Assembly: GCA_035476995.1 (NCBI GenBank)
Contig: DATIKY010000217.1
Location: 1-32,000 of the forward strand
Direction of reading: 5' to 3'
Source of the DNA: Sedimentisphaerales bacterium
Lineage (GTDB): Bacteria; Planctomycetota; Phycisphaerae; Sedimentisphaerales; Anaerobacaceae
DNA: 32,000 nucleotides
The notes under the pieces were generated by a model. The model searched no databases. It was not told the origin of the DNA and saw nothing but the letters and a program-made list of their open reading frames with translations. Shown in pieces: positions 2,708 through 11,308 of the stretch. The stretch's first letter is position 1. Every line of letters starts with the position of its first letter. The position numbers and the translations under genes are program-made.

Positions 2708-4078
2708 TTACGGCGTCAACGTCTGCTTGGACGCACCGGGCCAATCCTCGGCTCGCGTGCCCTGATAGGTTGTCAGAGTGTACTGGAACGTCCGTTCCGA
2801 TCGCGGCTGCAGAAGGGCCGTGAACTCGACGGTATCCGCATCTATCTTCTCGAACTCGTCGATCTGGCCGCTACGCGCGAGCGTCCAATACGTTGTCTCG
2901 AAGTTCCGGCGGATCTCGACTTCGACCGGGACGTCCCGCGTGTTCTTGACCTTGACCTCGAACATCTGGATCTCGTCCCAGCCCGCGACATCCCTGTTTC
3001 GGTCGAAGCGATAGTTTTCGGTCCGGTATTCCATCAGCGTGGGCTCGACCACGACGTTCTCGACCGCTCCGAGATCGAGTTCTACATCCTGATCGACCGG
3101 GATGTACAGGAACGAGGACTCGCCCTCATAGGACAGATGCCCCTGGGCGTCGGCCTTGCGAAAGACACGCATCGTGCCGTCCGGGATGGGCGTGGCACCG
3201 AGCTTGTGTTCCTGGTCGTTCTTGAAGTTCAGGAACCGCTCGACCTGCGGGCCGTATCGGTCTTCTTCGAACTTGTACAGGTTGAGGACCGGCACCTCGG
3301 CCACGTCGAAGCTCTTGAGCCGCTTCGACCAGCCGGTAGGGATCGTCTCGGTCCCCTCGATCGTGTACAGGAAGTACTCGCTGAGTCCTTCCTTGACGAT
3401 CTCTTTCGGTCCATCGAAACCTGTCGCCATCGGCGCCATGGCATCGGCCATATCGAACCTCTCCATCTCGGCCTTGAACATCAGGGCGTGCGCCGGGCTT
3501 CGGGGCTGGACTCCCTCCGGCCGGCCATAGGGGTACTCACGTTGGGCCAGTTCCACGATCTGGTCGAGGATGTGGACCTGGCCCACGATGAGGCGGACCT
3601 GGGCGTTCTCGTAGTCTTCGCCGCTGTTGTTGGTGACGCGGACGTAGCCCTCCAGGCGCATGGTCTTCTCGTCGGGAGAGAGCGTGCCCATGTAGAACGC
3701 CCGCCAGGACAGGCCGCTGGTCAGATAGCTGATCTCCACGGAAACCTTGCCGCTGATCCGACTGCGGACGTTCCAGACGCCGACGTTCTTCACGCGAGCG
3801 GGGTACGTCAATTGGGCGATCTCGACCTCGCCGGGCCTGGCTTTGGGGAGCATATCGAGACTCGTGGGGTCGATCAGCGTCTCGGCCCACGAGAATTGCA
3901 GGGCGTTCTCGCCCTCTTTGAGCGTCAGCGAGCGTCCATCCCGCACGAGCGTCATGTCCGCGGAATTGTAGATCGTCAGTTGCACCGTGTCCCGCGCCGG
4001 CAGCGTCACCAGATCGACCTTGGCCTGCGACACCGCGGCAAAGAACCCAATCGTAAGAAGAACAAGAAGATATCTCAT
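2708..4078 (-). CDS. Secreted DUF4140/DUF4139-like protein, paralogue P1
   Basis: Signal peptide MRYLLVLLTIGFFAAVSQA. The motifs TVQLTIYNSADMTLVRD...IDPTSL and SYLTSGLSWRAFY...VRVTNNSGEDYENAQVRLIVG fit my recollection of DUF4140 plus DUF4139 (TIGR02231 'MuiA'-type). A GGAG sits 10 nt upstream of the ATG at 4078. The longer ORF to 4243 reads through a REP element. About 75% aa identity to P2 by eye. Confidence 0.75.
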   Translation of the reverse strand: MRYLLVLLTIGFFAAVSQAKVDLVTLPARDTVQLTIYNSADMTLVRDGRSLTLKEGENALQFSWAETLIDPTSLDMLPKARPGEVEIAQLTYPARVKNVGVWNVRSRISGKVSVEISYLTSGLSWRAFYMGTLSPDEKTMRLEGYVRVTNNSGEDYENAQVRLIVGQVHILDQIVELAQREYPYGRPEGVQPRSPAHALMFKAEMERFDMADAMAPMATGFDGPKEIVKEGLSEYFLYTIEGTETIPTGWSKRLKSFDVAEVPVLNLYKFEEDRYGPQVERFLNFKNDQEHKLGATPIPDGTMRVFRKADAQGHLSYEGESSFLYIPVDQDVELDLGAVENVVVEPTLMEYRTENYRFDRNRDVAGWDEIQMFEVKVKNTRDVPVEVEIRRNFETTYWTLARSGQIDEFEKIDADTVEFTALLQPRSERTFQYTLTTYQGTRAEDWPGASKQTLTP

Positions 4079-4131
4079 ACAGGACACTCCAAAGAGTTCC
4101 AAATTGCCGAATAGTCGTGGCGAGCGGCAGC

Positions 4132-4225
4132 CTGTTTGTAGTGTGCCCGTAAGGGCATATCTTGAATCGGCAGCGTCCCCTCGCAAGCACGGAAGATAAC
4201 GCCTTACGGCGTCACTACGAACAAG
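4132..4225. repeat. REP-like hairpin doublet (GTAGTG-stem-GTAA-stem units in inverted orientation, about 35-nt spacer)
   Basis: Unit A is GTAGTGTGCCCGTAAGGGCATAT (4138-4160). Unit B is inverted, ATAACGCCTTACGGCGTCACTAC (4196-4218). The same two units recur at 8326-8374 on the other strand. Confidence 0.8.
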
Positions 4226-4258
4226 TCCGTCAGCCGGTCTCATACAGATTCACCCCAT

Positions 4259-5623
4259 TCACTGAGGCCTGCCGGACCGCCTGACGGCGTCCTCCGCCCG
4301 GGTGCCCTGGTAGGTCGTCAGCGTGTATTCGAACGTTTTCTTCGACTGCGACGCCATCGCCACCGTGAACTTCACCGTGTCGAGATCGACCTTCTCGAAG
4401 CCGGTCTCGTCGCCGGCTCGCTTGAGGTCCCAGTTCGGCGTGCCGAAGTTGCGGACGATTTCGATCTTCGCCGGAACGTCGCGCGTGTTGCGGACCTCGA
4501 CCGCGAACGTCTGCACTTCGTCCCAGCCGCTGACATTGCCTCGGTTGTTGAAGCGGTAGTTCTCCGTCTTGTAGTCCATGAGCCTGGGCTCGACGACCAC
4601 GTCCGCAACGGTCCCGAGGTTCAGTTCCACCTCGTCGTTGACGGGGATGTACTTGAAGGCGGACCGGCCTTCGTACGACAGGTGCTTCTGGTCGTCCACG
4701 GATCGATAGACCTTCAGATTGCCGTCGGGGATCGGGGTCTGGCCAAGCTTGTGCTCCTGGTCGTTCTTGAAGCTCAGGAACCGCACGACCTGCGGGCCGT
4801 ATCGCTCCTGCTCGTACTTGTACAGGTTCACGACGGGCACGCCCTCGACGTCGAAACTCGCCAGCCGCTTCGACCAGCCGGTCGGGATGGTCTCGGCGCC
4901 TTCGATCGTGTAGAGGAAGTACTCGCTCAGGCCCTCTTTCACGATCGCCTTCGGCTTGGCAACCGACATCGCCATGATTTCACCCCTCGCACGTTCCCCC
5001 AAAGCCCTTCCCGCCATAGCCGGCATCGGCATGGCCGCCGGCGGAACGGCCTGCCCCGGCCGGCCGTAAGGGTACTCCCGCCGGGCCAGTTCAGCGATCT
5101 GGTCGAGGATGTGGACTTTGCCCACAATGAGCCGCACCTGGGCGTTCTCATAGTCCTCGCCGCTCTTGTTCGTCACGCGGACGTAGCCCTGGAGCCGCAT
5201 TGTCTTCTCGTCCTGGGCCAGCGTGCCCATGTAGAACGCCCGCCAGGTCAGGCCGCTGGTCAGATACGTGATCTCGACAGGGACCGGGCCGCTGATCTCG
5301 CTCTGGACGTTCCACAAACCGAGATTCTTCACCCGCGGCGGATACACCAGCTCGGCGATGTCGATCTTGTCCACCTGGGCCTTAGCCAGCATTTCCAGAC
5401 TCGTCGGATCGATCAGCGTATTCTCCCAGGAGAACTGCAGGGCGTTCTTGCCCTCTTTCAGGGTCAGCGCCCGACTCTCGCGGACGAGCGTCATGTCCGC
5501 GGAGTTGTAGATCGTCAGTTGCACGGTGTCGCGCGAGGGCAGCGTGGTCAGGTCCACCTTGGCCGATGCCGTCGCTTCGGCGAACATCACAAGCATTGTC
5601 AGGAATAGTACGGAAGGTTTCAT
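4259..5623 (-). CDS. Secreted DUF4140/DUF4139-like protein, paralogue P2
   Basis: Signal peptide MKPSVLFLTMLVMFAEATASA, and collinear with P1 throughout. A GGAG sits 9 nt upstream of the ATG at 5623, in the same TGGAGTG context as P1. The longer ORF to 5758 reads through a REP element (translated as ...SFPRKREST...). Confidence 0.75.
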   Translation of the reverse strand: MKPSVLFLTMLVMFAEATASAKVDLTTLPSRDTVQLTIYNSADMTLVRESRALTLKEGKNALQFSWENTLIDPTSLEMLAKAQVDKIDIAELVYPPRVKNLGLWNVQSEISGPVPVEITYLTSGLTWRAFYMGTLAQDEKTMRLQGYVRVTNKSGEDYENAQVRLIVGKVHILDQIAELARREYPYGRPGQAVPPAAMPMPAMAGRALGERARGEIMAMSVAKPKAIVKEGLSEYFLYTIEGAETIPTGWSKRLASFDVEGVPVVNLYKYEQERYGPQVVRFLSFKNDQEHKLGQTPIPDGNLKVYRSVDDQKHLSYEGRSAFKYIPVNDEVELNLGTVADVVVEPRLMDYKTENYRFNNRGNVSGWDEVQTFAVEVRNTRDVPAKIEIVRNFGTPNWDLKRAGDETGFEKVDLDTVKFTVAMASQSKKTFEYTLTTYQGTRAEDAVRRSGRPQ

Positions 5624-5662
5624 AGGATCACTCCAGTATTCTTCAGGACCGGGCCAGCCCGT

Positions 5663-5732
5663 CTTGTCACCCTCGCGAAAGCGGGGGTCCATTCCGCAGG
5701 TCGTGGATTCCCGCTTGCGCGGGAATGACAAG
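5663..5732. repeat. REP-like hairpin doublet of a second sequence family (CTTGTCA-stem-GNRA-stem-TCCA units, inverted)
   Basis: CTTGTCACCCTCGCGAAAGCGGGGGTCCA (5663-5691) and its inverted partner TGGATTCCCGCTTGCGCGGGAATGACAAG (5704-5732). Each unit is a 7-8 bp stem capped by a GAAA or GCAA loop. Confidence 0.8.
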
Positions 5733-5761
5733 AGAGCGGCGTTCGGCCGTCCTTGCATTCA

Positions 5762-6916
5762 TCACTGACCCGGCCGCACGTTGCGACGGTGATAACGCAT
5801 CGTCAGCTCTTTGACGCCGGGGCCTTTTTCGGTCCGAGCCGGCAGCTCGATCTCGAACTTGAGCGTCGAGGCATCCTTCTTCACGTACTTGAGATTGCAC
5901 TCCGCCATGTCCCACTGGCCGGGGATGTGCTGGACCATCGTCAGGACCGCAGGGCTGTCCTTGAAGTTCTCGATCTTGGCCTTGATGATCTCGTCGGTAT
6001 CGAGCAGGACGACGACGCCGTCGTTGTTCTTGCGGAGGTTGATCTGGGCGTCCTGCATCTTTCGCTGGGTGACGACGATGTCCCGGCTGTCGCCGATGTA
6101 GAGTTCCATCTTCTCCCCGACCGGCACGAGCGAGGCGTTGTCCTCGCCCAGGAAGATCGTGGAGCCGTGGCCGTCCTGCTGGAAGAGGCGCGCCTTGCCG
6201 CCCCAGAGGGCGAACCTGCCCAGGCCGCTCTTATCGCTGTTGACGACCTCGTAGCTGACCGGAATGCCCACGTTCTGATTGTTGAGCTGCTCGGGGTCCC
6301 AGGGCAGCTTGGCGGCGTCGAAGGTCCAGATCTTGCGGACCGGGACGTTGGGCTCGTTGAGGAACAGCATCTGCTTGGTTTCCTCGTGGTCGATGCCCTG
6401 CTCGAAGGCCTCGCCGTAATCGAGCAGCACGCGGGCCTTCTCGAAATCCTCGCCGGAGAAGTTGCGAAGGACCAGGTAGCTCTTGAGGTCCACGAACGTC
6501 TCAGCCTTGTTCGCGACCGCCTTATATGTGATGAGCCGGTCGATATTGCTCAGCAGGTAGCTGATGCGGACGGTCTCGGCGAAGTCGCCCGCGCTGCTGA
6601 TCTCCCAGACCAACGCCGCCTCGCCCGGCGGATAGCTGATGCTCAGCAGCGTCACGTCGCCCGGATGATCCAGACTCACCAGCCGAATGGAATCCTCATC
6701 GATCTGCACACCCTTCCACGAGAAATCGACCTTGTTGAGGCCCTTCTGGAGCGTCAGCACACGTTCCTCTTCGATCAAAGTCGCATTCGGGTTGTCCAGC
6801 CGAATCACCGTCGCAGCCCGCTCGGGCAGCGCCACCAGCTTGATCCTCGCCTGGGCCCCCGCCGCCAGGCACAGCAGAGCCAGAACACCGGTCACAACGC
6901 TACGTCTTGCGTTCAT
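5762..6916 (-). CDS. Secreted divergent DUF4140/DUF4139-like protein, paralogue P3 (shorter)
   Basis: Signal peptide MNARRSVVTGVLALLCLAAGAQA. It keeps LTLQKGLNKVDFSW...IDEDSI and LVLRNFSGEDFEKARVLL, equivalent to the P1/P2 motifs. It lacks the central YPYG...KEGLSEYFLYTIEG insert. RBS GAGGAG lies upstream of the ATG at 6916. Confidence 0.65.
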   Translation of the reverse strand: MNARRSVVTGVLALLCLAAGAQARIKLVALPERAATVIRLDNPNATLIEEERVLTLQKGLNKVDFSWKGVQIDEDSIRLVSLDHPGDVTLLSISYPPGEAALVWEISSAGDFAETVRISYLLSNIDRLITYKAVANKAETFVDLKSYLVLRNFSGEDFEKARVLLDYGEAFEQGIDHEETKQMLFLNEPNVPVRKIWTFDAAKLPWDPEQLNNQNVGIPVSYEVVNSDKSGLGRFALWGGKARLFQQDGHGSTIFLGEDNASLVPVGEKMELYIGDSRDIVVTQRKMQDAQINLRKNNDGVVVLLDTDEIIKAKIENFKDSPAVLTMVQHIPGQWDMAECNLKYVKKDASTLKFEIELPARTEKGPGVKELTMRYHRRNVRPGQ

Positions 6917-6935
6917 ATCTGTTTCTCCTCAAGAA

Positions 6936-8831
6936 TCAGTTGCCTGTTCTGATGTTGTCGTCAGATGCCGCCTCTTGGCGCACACCATGGTATGTCGTCA
7001 CTTCGTACTCGAAAACTTGCGTCCGTCGGGCTGGAACGGTCAGCTCGAAGCGGGCGTGGCTCGCATCGTGTTTGCGATACGTCGCCCCGCCGCTCATCAG
7101 CTTGAGCGTCCAGTACGGCGTCCCGAATCCCCGCGTCACCTCAACCTGAACCGGCAGCGCGCTCGCATTGGCGATCTCGATCTTCCAGGTCCGCACTTCC
7201 TCCCAGCCGTTGACCTCGCCCTTCGTATCGAAGGTATGATTCGCGGTCCGGTAGTCCATCAGCACGGGTTTGACCTCGACCAGCCGGGCCGGCCCAAGAT
7301 TCAGCTCAACCTCTTCGCCCACGGGGATATACTTCACGCCCATGCCGCCGACGTAGGACAAATGCCCCTGCTCATCCGCCCGGCCGTAAACGCGGACCAT
7401 CCCGTCCGGCAGCGGCGTCTCGCCGAGCTTGTGCTCCGCGTCGTTGGCAAAGCTCAGGAACCGAATTGTCTGGCTCCCCCACCGCTCCTCGTCATATTTG
7501 CACAGACTTGTAACGGGGATGTCGTCGGCGTCAAACGACATCAGCCGCTTGCCCCATTCGTTCGGGATCGTCTCCGTCCCCTCAATCGTGTAGAGGAAGT
7601 ACTCGCTAAGTCCCTCCTTTTGGATTTCCTTGGGTGGCATTGCATAGGCTACCGGACCGTGCAGGTCTTTGCCGCTCAGGTCTGCGACGCTCCTGCCCCC
7701 CGGCAGCTTGAGTCTCCGGAGTCTGTCCAGATAGTTCGGAACGTCGTGACCACCGTAGGGATACGGGCGTTGGGCCAGTTCTCTTATCCGCTCAAGAAGA
7801 TGGACCCGACCGACGAGAAGGCGGGTTTCGGCGTCTTCGTAGTCCTCGCCGCTGTTGTTGCTGACGCGTACATAGGCCTCCAGGCGTATCGTTTTCTCGT
7901 CCTGGGAGAGCGTGCCCATGTAGAAGGCGCGCCACGCGAGACCGCTGGTCATGTAGGTCAACTCGAAGGGTACTTGGCCCGCGACCTCGGAGCGGATCAG
8001 CCAGCGGCCGAGCTCACGCAATCTCGGCGGGAAGACTAACTGCTGGACCTCGACTTCGCCCTTGTGCTCCAGCGGCTCGAGATTGAGCGAGGTGGGGTCG
8101 ATCAGCGTGCCGGCCCACATGAACTGGAGCCAGTTCCAGCCTCGCTTCAAGGTCAAATTCCGCTTCTCCCGCACGAGCGTCAGGTCGGCGGCGTTGTAGA
8201 TCGTCAGTTGCACGTCCTCCCGGCGAGGCAGGACGACCAGTTCGATCGCACTGGCCGGGGCAAACGGCGGCTGATCATCGATTGCGTCAGGTTGCCCCGT
8301 CCCAGGGGCATCAGCAAGCGCGCTTGTAGTGACGCCGTAAGGCGTTTCCGGATATGCCCTTACGGGCACACTACGAACAGGGTCTTCGGCCTTGCCGCCG
8401 GCCGGAGACGGCGCCATCGCGAGCAAGGGCACTTCCTCGGCCAAGCCCGTCGTCGCCGTCTCCGGGGCAGGTTGCGAAGCCGTTGAGAATGTCGGTGCAT
8501 CCTTGCGGCCCCGATCCGGCACCGCCAGCAGCGCAATTCCGACGATCACCGCCGCGGCGACCGCCCCGGCCCAGGGCAGCCTGTGGAGCAGGAGCCTTCT
8601 CCATCGCCCGGCCTGCTGTGCGTTGTGAATCGTCTCGGACAGCAGCGTCCGCGAGGCCTTCACGTCGTCCCGAAGCAGTTCCAGAGCATTGAACTTGCGG
8701 CCCAGCGTGTGCAGCCGTCGGCGGCAGGCTTCGCACTTCTCCAGATGGGTGCGAGCCTCGCCCGCGTCCGCCTCGGAGGTCAGGTCGAACTGGTAATCGA
8801 TAAGCTGCTGATCTGTCAGATGCGTGTTCAT
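6936..8831 (-). CDS. Anti-sigma factor (zinc-finger HxxxCxxC type) fused through one TM helix and a long linker to a DUF4140/DUF4139-like extracytoplasmic domain
   Basis: The N-terminus THLEKCEACRRRL gives H-x3-C-x2-C (nt 8724-8747). The TM helix is LPWAGAVAAAVIVGIALLAV (nt 8520-8579). A P/A/T-rich linker of about 90 aa follows. From aa ~195 the protein is collinear with P1/P2 (DVQLTIYNAADLTLVRE...YMTSGLAWRAFYMGTLSQDEKT...SNNSGEDYEDAETRLLVG...KEGLSEYFLYTIEGTETIP). Its ATG overlaps the sigma gene's TGA (ATGA, 8828-8831). Confidence 0.8.
   Translation of the reverse strand: MNTHLTDQQLIDYQFDLTSEADAGEARTHLEKCEACRRRLHTLGRKFNALELLRDDVKASRTLLSETIHNAQQAGRWRRLLLHRLPWAGAVAAAVIVGIALLAVPDRGRKDAPTFSTASQPAPETATTGLAEEVPLLAMAPSPAGGKAEDPVRSVPVRAYPETPYGVTTSALADAPGTGQPDAIDDQPPFAPASAIELVVLPRREDVQLTIYNAADLTLVREKRNLTLKRGWNWLQFMWAGTLIDPTSLNLEPLEHKGEVEVQQLVFPPRLRELGRWLIRSEVAGQVPFELTYMTSGLAWRAFYMGTLSQDEKTIRLEAYVRVSNNSGEDYEDAETRLLVGRVHLLERIRELAQRPYPYGGHDVPNYLDRLRRLKLPGGRSVADLSGKDLHGPVAYAMPPKEIQKEGLSEYFLYTIEGTETIPNEWGKRLMSFDADDIPVTSLCKYDEERWGSQTIRFLSFANDAEHKLGETPLPDGMVRVYGRADEQGHLSYVGGMGVKYIPVGEEVELNLGPARLVEVKPVLMDYRTANHTFDTKGEVNGWEEVRTWKIEIANASALPVQVEVTRGFGTPYWTLKLMSGGATYRKHDASHARFELTVPARRTQVFEYEVTTYHGVRQEAASDDNIRTGN
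8321..8380. repeat. REP-like hairpin doublet (same A/B units as 4132-4225, opposite orientation, 5-nt spacer) lying inside the anti-sigma coding sequence
   Basis: GTAGTGACGCCGTAAGGCGTT (8326-8346) plus ATATGCCCTTACGGGCACACTAC (8352-8374). It is translated in-frame as PVRSVPVRAYPETPYGVTTS (aa 151-170 of the anti-sigma). Confidence 0.8.
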
Positions 8832-9415
8832 TTCGTTGCACCTATCGAATCCGGCAGTCTCTGGGCCAACGTCGCCAACGCCCGCGACATCTGGGTCTTC
8901 ACCGAGCCGACAGAACAGCCCAGCACCTCGGCGACCTCGCGATAACTGAGCTGCTGATAATAGGCAAGGACCAGCGTGGCTCTCTGGCCCGGCGGGAGCG
9001 ACTCGATCGCCTTGCGGACCTGCTCCTTCTGTTCCCGGCGGACCAGTTCCTCCGGCGGGCTCGCCGCGTTCTCATCGGCGAGGCGCGCAAGCTGCGAATC
9101 CTCCCCCTCGCCGCAGTCGGTCTGCGGATCTTGCGAGATCGTCACCTGCCGCTTGCTGCGCCGGACGCCGTCGATCGTGACCCGCGTGGCGATGGTGAAC
9201 AGCCAGCTCTTGAAGCCGCCGCCTTGGAAGGTATGGGCTTTCTCGTGGACCCGTTTGAAGGTCTCCTGAAAAAGGTCTTCAGCCTGGTCGCGATTGCCTA
9301 TCATGTGACACAAATACCCCAACACGCCGTCGCCATAGCGGCAGACCAGTTCGCGAAACGCCGTCGGATCACCCTTGAGGTGCGCGGCGATCAGATTCTC
9401 ATCCGAATGTGCCAT
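8828..9415 (-). CDS. ECF-type RNA polymerase sigma factor (sigma-70 family, regions 2 and 4)
   Basis: MAHSDENLIAAHLKGDPTAFRELVCRYGDGVLGYL...DLFQETFKRVHE (region 2) and LPPGQRATLVLAYYQQLSYREVAEVLGCSVGSVKTQMSRA (region 4 HTH). I prefer the start at 9415 because an ECF-like promoter lies inside the longer ORF (to 9472). Confidence 0.85.
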   Translation of the reverse strand: MAHSDENLIAAHLKGDPTAFRELVCRYGDGVLGYLCHMIGNRDQAEDLFQETFKRVHEKAHTFQGGGFKSWLFTIATRVTIDGVRRSKRQVTISQDPQTDCGEGEDSQLARLADENAASPPEELVRREQKEQVRKAIESLPPGQRATLVLAYYQQLSYREVAEVLGCSVGSVKTQMSRALATLAQRLPDSIGATK

Positions 9416-9440
9416 CAAGGCCACGACTCCAACTACTCCC

Positions 9441-9471
9441 TTAGACGAGCATCGTAGCGAGGCGGTTGACA
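9441..9471 (-). promoter_or_regulatory. Candidate ECF-type (autoregulatory) promoter
   Basis: The minus strand reads TGTCAAC-N17-CGTCTAA. This has the AAC (-35) and CGT (-10) signature typical of ECF promoters, about 25 nt upstream of the 9415 ATG. Confidence 0.35.
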
Positions 9472-9482
9472 AGACAGAAGAG

Positions 9483-9589
9483 AAATAGGACGAATAAGAC
9501 TTATGGGACCCATAGGACGCAAGCCAATCGCGCGGTCAGGCTCGCGTCCTATGGGTCCTATCCGTCCTATGAGTCCTATAAGTCCTATT
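9483..9589. repeat. Inverted arrays of a 9-bp periodic unit (NNATAGGAC x4 / GTCCTATNN x5) flanking a 23-nt spacer
   Basis: The left arm is 9483-9520 and the right arm 9544-9589. The core 15-bp perfect stem is GGACCCATAGGACGC/GCGTCCTATGGGTCC, extendable with mismatches. The right arm overlaps the stop codon (9585-9587) of the upstream gene. Confidence 0.75.
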
Positions 9590-11159
9590 CGCTCTTGCCC
9601 ATCGCCCAGAAAACCGCATTGATCAGCAGCCTGCGAAACTGCGGGTCTTTGAAATCATCCGGATGACCGAGCGATGTGTAGAAGACCCGCGAATTCCTGT
9701 AGCGATTCGTCCAGGCGACCGGCTCCGGCGGCTGATCCGGGATCGTGCCGAGCAGAAGCAACTGCGTGCCGGCGGCCAGCGGGCTGGGCCTATACAGCGA
9801 ACCATTGCTCAGGAACGGCAATTCGACGCCTTTGAGAATCGGATGATCCGTCGCACCCGCGGCGGCCGCGATTGCCGCCACAGGGCCTGCGGCGTAGTGA
9901 CCCCGATAGTTGCCGCCGAGGACGTCTGCGTCGAATCTGGGCCACTCGTCGCGGCCCTTCGGCGCCGCGCCTCGCGAATCGAACGCGTGACTGGCGGTGC
10001 GGAGCCCGATCAGAGGCCCGCCGCGATCGAGGAACTCCCGCAGGTGCTTCATCTGCTCGGCCGGGAATCCCCTGCGCCTCGCGTAGACCACGACCAGTTG
10101 GGCGTCGCTGAGGATCTCCATGCCGCAGATCTCATGGATGGCGTCGCCCCGCGCCTCGGTGCTGGCCTGGAGGATCTCGCAGTCCAGGCCGTGCTTGAGC
10201 TCGAGTTCACGAGCGAACTGGGGCAGCGTCTCCGCGGCCTTGTACTCGTTCTCTGCAGAGAGGAACACGACCAGGGGTCTCTTGTCCTCCTTGAACCGAA
10301 ACGCCAGCTCGCCTGTGAAGGCGTTCGACGTAGTCGTGGGGCAAACGTACTGCTCGACGTGCTCAACGACCAGATCCGTACCGGTGAAATGGCTCACCTG
10401 GGGCGACTTGCGGGAGTTGTACATGGTGTCCGTCAGGTCCCGCATCAGGACCACGTTCTTGCCGGCACTCGCCAGATTGCGAAGCCCGAACGGTCTGCCG
10501 AGCACGCACATATTCGTGTGCACTCCCATCAGGATCACGTTCTCGATGCCTCGTGCTTCCAACAGGTTCCAGACCTCCACGCCGGAATCGCTGATGGCAT
10601 CCTGATCCTCGATTTCAATGATGCCGATCTGGCTCGTCCAGGGCGAAGCCACCTGGCAAGTGGGCTCACAGTCGCAACCGCCGTCGGAGTGATCGATGGG
10701 GTAGCCGGCGGACCTCTCAGCTTCATCCTTCCACTGACGCCACGAGCGAATGCCAGCGGGCAGATTCGTTGCGTTGGGGGCCTGCATGGCCCTTCGGCGA
10801 GCCGGATGGTCCTTGTAGTGGTCGATGACGCCGCTGGGAGCATGGACGATCAGCACGCCCTTGTCACGTGCGGCACAGACTACTCGATTCATCACCGGGG
10901 CCAGTTCGCCTACCCGCTCGGTCGCCCCTTTGCACCAGTGCTGGTCCCACATGTCGCAGAGGATGATGGCCGTCTCGCAAGGGTCCCACTGCCGGCTCTC
11001 GTAGACGACGCGAAACGGCCCCTGCGCATCGGAGATCGCGACGCGGCTTCGCAGATCCACGGTCAGCGTTCGCGCCGCGAGCGCCGACCCACAGAGCAAG
11101 ACCGCCAGAGCAACGTACACACTTGCTCGAACGACTGTCGATTCCTTGAAGGACATCAT
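9585..11159 (-). CDS. Secreted fusion protein: isochorismatase-like cysteine hydrolase domain plus ThuA-like (trehalose-utilisation/class-I amidotransferase-like) domain
   Basis: Signal peptide MMSFKESTVVRASVYVALAVLLCGSALA. N-terminal half: AIILCDMWDQHW...ENVILMGVHTNMCVLGRPFG (isochorismatase-like). C-terminal half: ...AWTNRYRNSRVFYTSLGHPDDFKDPQFRRLLINAVFWAMG (ThuA signature). RBS AAGGGGG lies upstream of ATGATG at 11159. Confidence 0.7.
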   Translation of the reverse strand: MMSFKESTVVRASVYVALAVLLCGSALAARTLTVDLRSRVAISDAQGPFRVVYESRQWDPCETAIILCDMWDQHWCKGATERVGELAPVMNRVVCAARDKGVLIVHAPSGVIDHYKDHPARRRAMQAPNATNLPAGIRSWRQWKDEAERSAGYPIDHSDGGCDCEPTCQVASPWTSQIGIIEIEDQDAISDSGVEVWNLLEARGIENVILMGVHTNMCVLGRPFGLRNLASAGKNVVLMRDLTDTMYNSRKSPQVSHFTGTDLVVEHVEQYVCPTTTSNAFTGELAFRFKEDKRPLVVFLSAENEYKAAETLPQFARELELKHGLDCEILQASTEARGDAIHEICGMEILSDAQLVVVYARRRGFPAEQMKHLREFLDRGGPLIGLRTASHAFDSRGAAPKGRDEWPRFDADVLGGNYRGHYAAGPVAAIAAAAGATDHPILKGVELPFLSNGSLYRPSPLAAGTQLLLLGTIPDQPPEPVAWTNRYRNSRVFYTSLGHPDDFKDPQFRRLLINAVFWAMGKSE

Positions 11160-11308
11160 GTCTAACCCCCTTTTATGCGTGATCGGCCTGCACCAGAGCA
11201 ACCAACCGGCTCTGCCTGCGGCGTAATATACGCCAGAATCGACACTTGTGGCAAGTCTCAGGCACATGGTTTGCGAGCGGCCAAGGCCGGTCCGGAGCGG
11301 TTTTGTTC

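Follow-up and report, generated by a model that had tools for sequence, protein, structure and literature searches.

A Sedimentisphaerales gene cluster encoding an ECF sigma factor, a DUF4139-type anti-sigma factor as predicted sensor, and secreted paralogues of the sensor domain

The analysed window comprises 32,000 nucleotides (nt) of a Sedimentisphaerales bacterium genome (assembly GCA_035476995.1, contig DATIKY010000217.1, positions 1 to 32,000), and the system considered here is a five-gene cluster on its minus strand. The cluster encodes a sigma factor of the extracytoplasmic function (ECF) type, an anti-sigma factor with a periplasmic DUF4139-type ectodomain, and three secreted paralogues of this ectodomain, termed P3, P2, and P1. 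Five co-oriented open reading frames (ORFs) were confirmed in an ORF listing with translations and agree with the layout described in a first-pass annotation of this DNA, including the ATGA overlap of sigma stop and anti-sigma start and the gap of 19 nt between the anti-sigma gene and P3; the P3-P2 and P2-P1 gaps measure 138 nt and 180 nt, respectively. From upstream to downstream, the features are as follows:

9443..9471, minus strand: predicted ECF-type promoter, TGTCAACC (-35), 16-nt spacer containing CTACGAT, CGTCT (-10)
9416..9442, minus strand: short, conserved leader with a GGAG ribosome-binding site ~11 nt before the ATG
8828..9415, minus strand: sigma gene, ECF (group 4) sigma-70 family, 195 amino acids (aa)
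6936..8831, minus strand: anti-sigma gene, 631 aa, N-terminal zinc-type domain and DUF4139-type ectodomain
8580..8831, minus strand: cytoplasmic zinc-type anti-sigma domain (aa 1-84) with H4, H29, C33, and C36
8520..8579, minus strand: single transmembrane helix (aa 85-104), LPWAGAVAAAVIVGIALLAV, hydrophobic stretch read from the translation
8277..8519, minus strand: Pro/Ala/Thr-rich periplasmic linker (aa 105-185)
8220..8276, minus strand: invariant junction motif (aa 186-204), ..PPFAPASAIELVVLPRR, start of the ectodomain
6936..8219, minus strand: anti-sigma ectodomain (aa 205-631 and stop), periplasmic, DUF4139-type, ~430 aa
5762..6916, minus strand: P3 gene, 384 aa, secreted divergent paralogue without the central insert
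4259..5623, minus strand: P2 gene, 454 aa, secreted DUF4139-type paralogue
2708..4078, minus strand: P1 gene, 456 aa, secreted DUF4139-type paralogue

The sigma factor scored 55.5 bits with Pfam Sigma70_r2, 66.1 bits with Sigma70_r4_2, and 107 bits with the NCBIfam model TIGR02937 (sigma70-ECF, cut-off 42.9), and reached no NCBIfam equivalog cut-off. It consists of sigma-2 and sigma-4 domains only, its length falls within the ~170-220 aa of ECF sigma factors, and it is accompanied by an adjacent anti-sigma gene and a predicted promoter of the AAC (-35) / CGT (-10) type, as is characteristic of ECF (group 4) sigma factors. The closest solved structure is Bacillus subtilis SigW in the SigW-RsiW complex (5wuq, E 7e-22), and 2q1z_A was also matched (E 1.4e-14). 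A longer sigma ORF starting from TTG-9472 exists; as the conserved promoter falls inside it, ATG 9415 is the likely true start.

The N-terminus of the anti-sigma factor carries H29-x3-C33-x2-C36 with H4 as the fourth ligand, i.e., the class I zinc-binding anti-sigma (ZAS) motif. None of the four residues varies among 54 aligned anti-sigma homologues, and H-x24-H-x3-C-x2-C occurs with constant spacing in 120 of the 120 listed homologues; among distant representatives, P0271 is the only full-length fusion without the zinc motif, and its architecture is kept. The Pfam model zf-HC2 (PF13490) gave 16.7 bits with the window protein, below the gathering score of 22.2, and matched 25 of the 54 homologues at E ≤ 0.01 (best 4.1e-5); zf-HC2 membership is borderline by sequence and clear from motif and context. 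Comparison of the anti-sigma family profile with PDB sequences, used for motif register only, returned non-significant matches (E ≥ 0.1) with RsiW among the best; the weak matches to RsiW, RslA, and ChrR cover the N-terminal domain in register, and with the N-terminus alone, residues 3-44 were weakly aligned with residues 5-46 of ChrR (2q1z_B). A collagen-IV match of the N-terminus alone was discarded as spurious. Based on motif, position, and translational coupling to the sigma gene, the assignment of the N-terminus as an anti-sigma domain, which would bind the sigma factor, is well supported. The previously proposed pair of an ECF sigma and a zinc-type anti-sigma factor is thus borne out by Pfam and NCBIfam domains and by the invariant zinc-ligand motif.

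Mean column conservation along the anti-sigma factor was 0.69 in the cytoplasmic domain, 0.80 in the transmembrane segment, 0.40 in the linker (the least conserved part, 68 to 191 aa long among the 54 homologues), 0.97 in the junction, and 0.82-0.90 in the ectodomain. Conservation peaks at 0.998 in the 15-mer FAPASAIELVVLPRR of the junction, the highest value for any 15-mer in the protein, and the junction lines up with the first strand and the signal-peptide cleavage region of P1-P3; that it serves as a cleavage, processing, or gating site is speculation. An AlphaFold model of the full anti-sigma factor, built from 54 close homologues, placed a low-confidence helix at residues 88-102 and gave a predicted local distance difference test score (pLDDT) below 50 in the linker; with an overall pLDDT of 52.8 it was unusable and was kept out of the fold search.

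DUF4139 (PF13598) was detected above its gathering cut-off of 31.8 bits in the anti-sigma factor (37.7 bits), P2 (46.8 bits), and P1 (49.0 bits); P3 had no Pfam match above any cut-off, its sole match being DUF4140 (PF13600) at 13.9 bits against a cut-off of 27. Of the combined DUF4140 and DUF4139 match noted in the first-pass annotation, the DUF4139 part therefore stands for three of the proteins, and the DUF4140 part is marginal and below the Pfam threshold in the window. The suggested match to TIGR02231 (MuiA) did not hold, with 21.6 (anti-sigma), 30.5 (P2), and 34.4 (P1) bits against 112.6 and none for P3; judged by these scores, the window proteins appear to be distant relatives of the MuiA family and not members. 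As anticipated, neither the ectodomain nor P1-P3 matched a well-characterised family with a known biochemical role. The paralogy of the ectodomain with the three downstream secreted proteins, likewise noted beforehand, was substantiated by pairwise identity: 53% over 434 aa between ectodomain and P1 (E 1e-158), 67% between P2 and P1, and, by BLASTP, 33% over 161 aa (E 1e-21) and 25% over 143 aa (E 5e-10) between P3 and P1, covering both halves. The first strand is common to all four proteins (IELVVLP / KVDLVTLP / RIKLVALP), and P3 is without the central insert of ~55-70 aa. P1-P3 start with signal peptides whose n, h, and c regions, judged by eye, end in SQA|K, ASA|K, and AQA|R, and have no C-terminal hydrophobic segment. 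A redox role via cysteines of the secreted proteins was rejected, since mature P1 contains no cysteine and P3 and the ectodomain contain at most one.

The anti-sigma protein of the window is identical to one from a Sedimentisphaerales MAG (metagenome-assembled genome), and relatives of the anti-sigma fusion were found in at least 120 protein clusters (54-77% identity, 74-100% query cover, >110 of them at ≥98%). A scan of GTDB species genomes returned 208 with an anti-sigma relative, and the best 80 of these 208 were all MAGs of Phycisphaerae/Sedimentisphaerales-type Planctomycetota. For synteny, ORFs were called in 84 loci and classified against the window proteins, and 80 species-level loci were analysed. 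The dominant order was sigma, anti-sigma, P3, and then one to three P2-like genes, with P2-like copy numbers of 0 to 4 per locus; the synteny check asked for in the first-pass annotation hence recovered the order sigma / anti-sigma::DUF4139 / P3 / P2-like in most of the loci. Median identity to the window proteins, computed in 59 complete loci, was 79% for P3, 71% for P2, 66% for P1, 65% for the ectodomain, 64% for sigma, and 43% for the cytoplasmic anti-sigma domain, which makes P3 the most constrained component; accordingly, the best 120 database relatives of P3, the most conserved gene of the operon, are 82-100% identical.

P2 is the near-universal copy: almost every locus that extends far enough has a P2-like gene behind P3. 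A clear P2-then-P1 order was seen in 14 loci only; P2 is the ancestral copy and P1 a more recent duplicate of it. Free secreted copies that are closer to the ectodomain than to P2 occur in six loci (L034, L046, L048, L068, L071, and L081) and are located right after the anti-sigma gene. Orthologous ectodomains share ~65% identity across species, compared with ~53% to P1/P2 of the same genome. By this measure the ectodomain is an old lineage of its own without concerted evolution with P1/P2, which fits any conserved sensor function.

In some loci, optional genes are located between the anti-sigma gene and P3; their products are a protein of 534 aa, one end of which is AhpC/TSA-thioredoxin-like, a protein that carries three CarboxypepD_reg domains, a protein of 433 aa without Pfam matches, a DUF2330 protein, and a serpin (positions L010:10938-12542, L040:10920-12365, L001:11966-13267, L043:9167-10129, and L068:13927-15177). 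Among the loci examined for insertions, an AhpC/TSA thioredoxin-fold gene was found in six (L010, L043, L045, L056, L068, and L078). The 433-aa and 534-aa proteins were considered as hidden paralogues and ruled out by hhalign (probability <1%).

The only exact GTCAAC-N17-CGTC match in the window lies at 9444-9470, in front of the sigma gene. For promoter footprinting, the 140 nt upstream of the sigma start were aligned in 72 distinct loci, and the motif was located ~28 nt upstream of the start in 71 of them (consensus TGTCAACCgntgnGcTAcgATnnnCGTCT), with -35 and -10 elements nearly invariant across loci; the leader sequence GTAGTTGGAGTCGTAGCCTCG is also kept. Phylogenetic footprinting thereby corroborates, at the motif level, the TGTCAAC-N17-CGTC promoter that had been suggested from the window alone. 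Scanning both strands of 1.2 Mb of related loci (84 loci) with a position weight matrix yielded high-scoring sites upstream of sigma only. Before P3, P2, and P1, no ECF promoters were found, neither in the intergenic regions of the window at ≤1 mismatch nor by the matrix in the 84 loci, and no coding-strand terminator-like sites were found in the intergenic gaps; a scan for terminators and housekeeping promoters showed no enrichment over shuffles. With the sole motif before sigma and no internal motif or gap terminator, the genes from sigma to P1 most likely form one autoregulated operon and would be transcribed as a single unit.

Metagenome contigs were additionally scanned for TGTCAACC-N6-CTA-N2-AT-N3-CGTCT, returning 80 loci, of which 75 were evaluable and five were too short to judge. 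The motif was located 27-32 nt (mostly 28-29 nt) before a sigma orthologue in 66 loci, directly before a stand-alone P2-like gene in four (L115, L144, L153, and L161), before a 632-aa secreted AhpC/TSA-redoxin protein in one (L113), and fused to an anti-sigma fragment in two (L120 and L159); two further occurrences (L106 and L141) are probably due to chance. The stand-alone P2-like genes are monocistronic and situated in unrelated contexts, e.g., between radical-SAM and sulfatase genes in L161. Their motif copies are no chance matches because the flanks resemble those of sigma promoters (AT-rich upstream stretch in L115 and L161, leader in L144 and L153), and they are the best available evidence that P2-like proteins would be direct targets of the sigma factor.

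Two side observations concern the promoter region. An AT-rich direct repeat, TTTTAC-N-TTTAC, was found ~10-45 nt upstream of the -35 element in 30 of 69 related loci (e.g., L029, L038, L060, and L161) and is absent from the window; it is co-duplicated with the promoter before stand-alone P2-like genes and may represent an UP element or the site of a second regulator. In L120 and L159, which stem from different metagenome samples and are identical around the motif, the motif is followed by sequence encoding the anti-sigma HxxxCxxC with no sigma gene between, reflecting either a deletion or faulty assembly.

A profile of the four paralogous modules of the window retrieved 5,562 cluster representatives at E ≤ 0.001. 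Among 85 diverse relatives, DUF4139 was matched in 80 at E ≤ 5 and in 75 at E ≤ 0.001, and DUF4140 weakly in 22 (best E 0.0015). From 85 diverse sequences (23-68% identity to P1), an AlphaFold model of P1 was calculated with a pLDDT of 89.4 and a predicted template modelling score of 0.80, comprising an N-terminal beta domain (~31-165), a low-confidence insert (~170-235) that P3 does not have, and a beta region at the C-terminus (~236-440). The six best Foldseek matches of this model in the PDB were all chains of oligosaccharyltransferase complexes (6ezn_A (E 2.4e-7), 8agb_E, 8b6l_O, 6s7t_E, 7oci_A, and 6c26_1; E 2.4e-7 to 3.7e-5, probability 0.84-1.0), which, going by entries and chain lengths, we take to be Ost1/ribophorin I; the next matches were N-terminal beta domains of M1 aminopeptidases (E ~3e-3). 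We read the likeness of the model to Ost1 as one at the domain level with a different domain arrangement. Membership of the Ribophorin I/Ost1 family was rejected, as the likeness is structural only, without a sequence match or a C-terminal anchor. Ost1 itself contains two beta-rich luminal domains that resemble each other, and it binds glycosylated peptides (PMC7226087). Additionally, DUF4139-type relatives are fused to Laminin_G_3, a ConA-like lectin domain, in P0244 (C-terminal) and P0258 (between the two matched module halves), and to fn3_5 in P0263. Together, the Ost1-like fold, the glycopeptide binding by Ost1, and these fusions suggest that the modelled DUF4139 module is a binding module rather than an enzyme. 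DUF4139 is a widespread domain; in the literature searched, no paper on its function was found, and few mention the name.

Several observations concern the surroundings of the operon and its non-coding parts. Directly upstream on the same strand, at 9585-11267, lies a gene for a secreted ThuA-like/isochorismatase protein of 560 aa, outside the reach of the sigma-dependent promoter, and beyond it, from 11426 on (plus strand), follows a cluster of ferredoxin and 2-oxoacid:ferredoxin oxidoreductase genes; the synteny of both with the operon extends to many related genomes. A 41-nt inverted repeat (83% complementary, 13-nt loop) with tandem 9-nt ATAGGACnn units occupies positions 9485-9579, after the stop of the ThuA-like gene and before the sigma promoter, and may serve the ThuA-like gene as a terminator or insulator; in 15 of 69 related loci, repeats of the TAGGAC type precede the promoter. 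An imperfect palindromic repeat of ~60 nt is present at 4131-4235 (P2-P1 intergenic) and at 8326-8391 (the linker-coding part of the anti-sigma gene), with units approximating GTAGTG-ACGCC-GTAA-GGCGT ... GCCC-TTAC-GGGC-A-CACTAC that form hairpins with GNRA-type loops. The two copies match over 39 nt at 90% and over 21 nt at 100%, and the core CCCTTACGGGCACACTAC turned up again in five related loci, each time within the anti-sigma linker, and in two further places; it looks like an element of the repetitive extragenic palindrome or miniature inverted-repeat transposable element type that is tolerated within the coding linker. The P3-P2 intergenic region contains a further hairpin (5700-5745, minus strand; ATTCCCGC-GCAA-GCGGGAAT, 8-bp stem, GNRA loop) with no T-run after it, which was not scored as a terminator in the terminator scan. 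An Rfam search of the region returned sub-threshold chance matches only.

The reading we favour, with slightly better than even confidence, is a positively autoregulated ECF circuit in which sensor and outputs share a ligand. In the resting state, the N-terminal zinc-type domain of the single-pass anti-sigma factor would hold the sigma factor at the inner membrane, and a long flexible linker would join the membrane protein to its periplasmic module of ~430 aa with two beta-rich domains. An envelope or extracellular signal would then act on the ectodomain, upon which the anti-sigma factor would lose its activity; regulated proteolysis, as known from SigW/RsiW and RpoE/RseA, is the most likely route. 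The freed sigma factor would use TGTCAACC-N16-CGTCT to express its own gene, the anti-sigma gene, P3, P2, and P1 as one unit, and in other genomes would also drive stand-alone P2-like genes and the secreted redoxin. As paralogues, sensor and outputs would bind the same kind of ligand, i.e., a glycan, a (glyco)peptide, or an envelope polymer, so that one type of module would serve the cell both to notice a substrate and to act on it. In this scheme, gene structure, paralogy, the zinc-ligand motif, synteny, the promoter motif, and the predicted fold are observed, and we infer that sigma is bound, that it is released by proteolysis, that the genes are transcribed together, and what kind of signal is received.

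A number of points weigh against this favoured reading. All genomes carrying the circuit are MAGs, and the stand-alone P2-like genes with the promoter may belong to genomes without the sigma factor. The P3-P2 and P2-P1 gaps are long enough for promoters of other types, and a shared ligand may leave the role of P3, the best conserved gene, unaccounted for. The Foldseek TM-scores to the Ost1 chains are low (0.14-0.20), the match being local and domain-wise, and at the sequence level Pfam Ribophorin_I gave no match among the 85 relatives. Finally, the zinc motif could equally indicate redox sensing in the cytoplasm.

Among the rival explanations, product feedback or self-recognition survives best and is, in our view, possible at well below even confidence. 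Here, the ectodomain would pair with secreted P3, P2, or P1 by like-with-like beta-sandwich contacts, and the sensor would report the amount, assembly state, or loss of a protein layer built by the operon; the soluble copies might act as inhibitors or co-receptors, comparable to titration by CpxP in the Cpx system. That sensor and outputs are true paralogues, share their first strand, and are always encoded together agrees with this, as does the unusual constraint on P3 (median 79%), which is expected of a protein with several obligatory partners, and the free ectodomain-like copies encoded directly behind the anti-sigma gene might be competitors of the sensor. However, the ectodomains form an old lineage apart from P1/P2, with no sign of concerted evolution (53% to its paralogues, ~65% to orthologues), and 0 to 4 P2-like copies per locus are awkward for an assembly of fixed stoichiometry. 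That a shared ligand is sensed is no less likely than self-recognition and, given the precedent of RsgI/sigma-I, the simpler reading of a fold shared by sensor and outputs.

A wider reading, which we put forward tentatively and consider rather unlikely as a whole, joins a product-sensing ECF circuit with two further assumptions: DUF4139/MuiA-type proteins would be general periplasmic partners of ECF anti-sigma factors, as hinted at by the Pseudomonas SbrIR-MuiA system described below, and would share ancestry with Ost1/ribophorin I.

We regard as improbable that the signal is cytoplasmic, with the zinc-thiol motif sensing oxidative or thiol stress, as the zinc-thiol anti-sigma factors RsrA and ChrR do, and with the ectodomain being a membrane-tethered effector isoform instead of a sensor. 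All four zinc ligands are invariant with ChrR-like spacing, and two unrelated secreted AhpC/TSA proteins are linked to the system, one as an operon insert in six loci and one through the promoter motif in L113. Yet many zinc-type anti-sigma factors, e.g., RsiW, are not redox sensors, and the divergent fusion P0271 has lost the motif and kept the architecture. Moreover, ectodomain (0.82-0.90) and junction (0.97) are better conserved than the cytoplasmic domain (0.69), which argues that the outside part is functionally central. That the cluster is no functional unit at all, its order reflecting clade-wide collinearity and its paralogues being unrelated to the sigma factor, is very improbable and disfavoured: the ThuA/isochorismatase-like and 2-oxoacid:ferredoxin oxidoreductase neighbours are indeed also syntenic in many loci, but the motif precedes stand-alone P2-like genes in unrelated contexts (L161 and L153), the core order persists despite differing flanks or inserted genes, sigma and anti-sigma are translationally coupled, and only 19 nt separate anti-sigma and P3.

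The system is of a known kind, i.e., an ECF sigma/anti-sigma system, and its mechanism class is familiar; its sensor domain and the paralogy of sensor and outputs were not found described in the literature searched. Here, the DUF4139 module belongs to a defined circuit whose promoter and sensor are predicted and whose outputs are defined, so that the function of the module becomes testable, and the Ost1-like fold of the model hints at extended (glyco)peptides or glycans as what is bound. More than 200 uncultured Phycisphaerae species from sediments and digesters share the circuit, which is likely a core envelope-response pathway of this clade. The system is strongly conserved and lends itself to experiments in reconstituted form.

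Among known systems, SigW/RsiW of B. subtilis resembles the cluster in the sigma factor (5wuq being its closest structure), in the N-terminus of the anti-sigma factor (RsiW being among its best matches), in HxxxCxxC followed by one transmembrane helix, in adjacent sigma and anti-sigma genes, and in an autoregulated promoter of the AAC...CGT type. RsiW, which is removed through regulated intramembrane proteolysis with the proteases PrsW and RasP, differs in its small extracytoplasmic part without DUF4139 and in a regulon that does not consist of ectodomain paralogues. RpoE/ChrR of Rhodobacter sphaeroides shares the four-ligand zinc motif with identical spacing, H4/H29/C33/C36 falling on what we take to be the ChrR ligands H6/H31/C35/C38, and its sigma factor is matched by that of the window (2q1z_A); ChrR, in contrast, is soluble, with a cupin C-terminal domain, no membrane span, and no DUF4139. 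The luminal part of Ost1, the best structural match of the P1 model, likewise consists of two tandem beta-rich domains, but Ost1 has a C-terminal membrane anchor and is part of a fixed enzyme complex.

With respect to logic, sigma-I/RsgI is comparable, in that a single-pass anti-sigma factor senses an external substrate and shares modules with its regulon. The outside modules of RsgI proteins match in kind those of the secreted proteins that they regulate. However, sigma-I is not an ECF sigma factor, the N-terminal domain of RsgI is not of the zinc type, and the RsgI sensors are carbohydrate-binding, PA14, or glycoside hydrolase modules instead of DUF4139, with no sequence relationship to the window proteins. 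In cellulolytic clostridia, RsgI anti-sigma-I factors are polysaccharide sensors that regulate cellulosome genes via proteolytic signalling (PMC6852018, PMC10328401).

In Pseudomonas aeruginosa, the ECF sigma factor SbrI, controlled by the anti-sigma factor SbrR, is reported to promote transcription of muiA, and SbrI and MuiA are reported to respond to envelope stress (review, PMC10418997). SbrI/SbrR is likewise an ECF/anti-sigma pair, and its reported key target muiA is the namesake of the DUF4140/DUF4139 family; the main text of the ECF classification paper (Staron / Casas-Pastor) mentions neither SbrI nor the promoter motif. The window system differs in that the DUF4139-type module is fused to the anti-sigma factor and the targets lie in the same operon, in its phylum, and in proteins that score far below the TIGR02231 cut-off of MuiA. 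The first-pass statement that no described ECF group with this architecture was known therefore needs qualification: the paralogy of sensor and outputs was indeed not found described, but a link to the DUF4139 family exists in SbrI-muiA. SbrI/SbrR-muiA is the closest precedent for linking ECF signalling to this family, and, taken together with the circuit described here, it suggests a connection, possibly a general one, between ECF signalling and DUF4139-type proteins.

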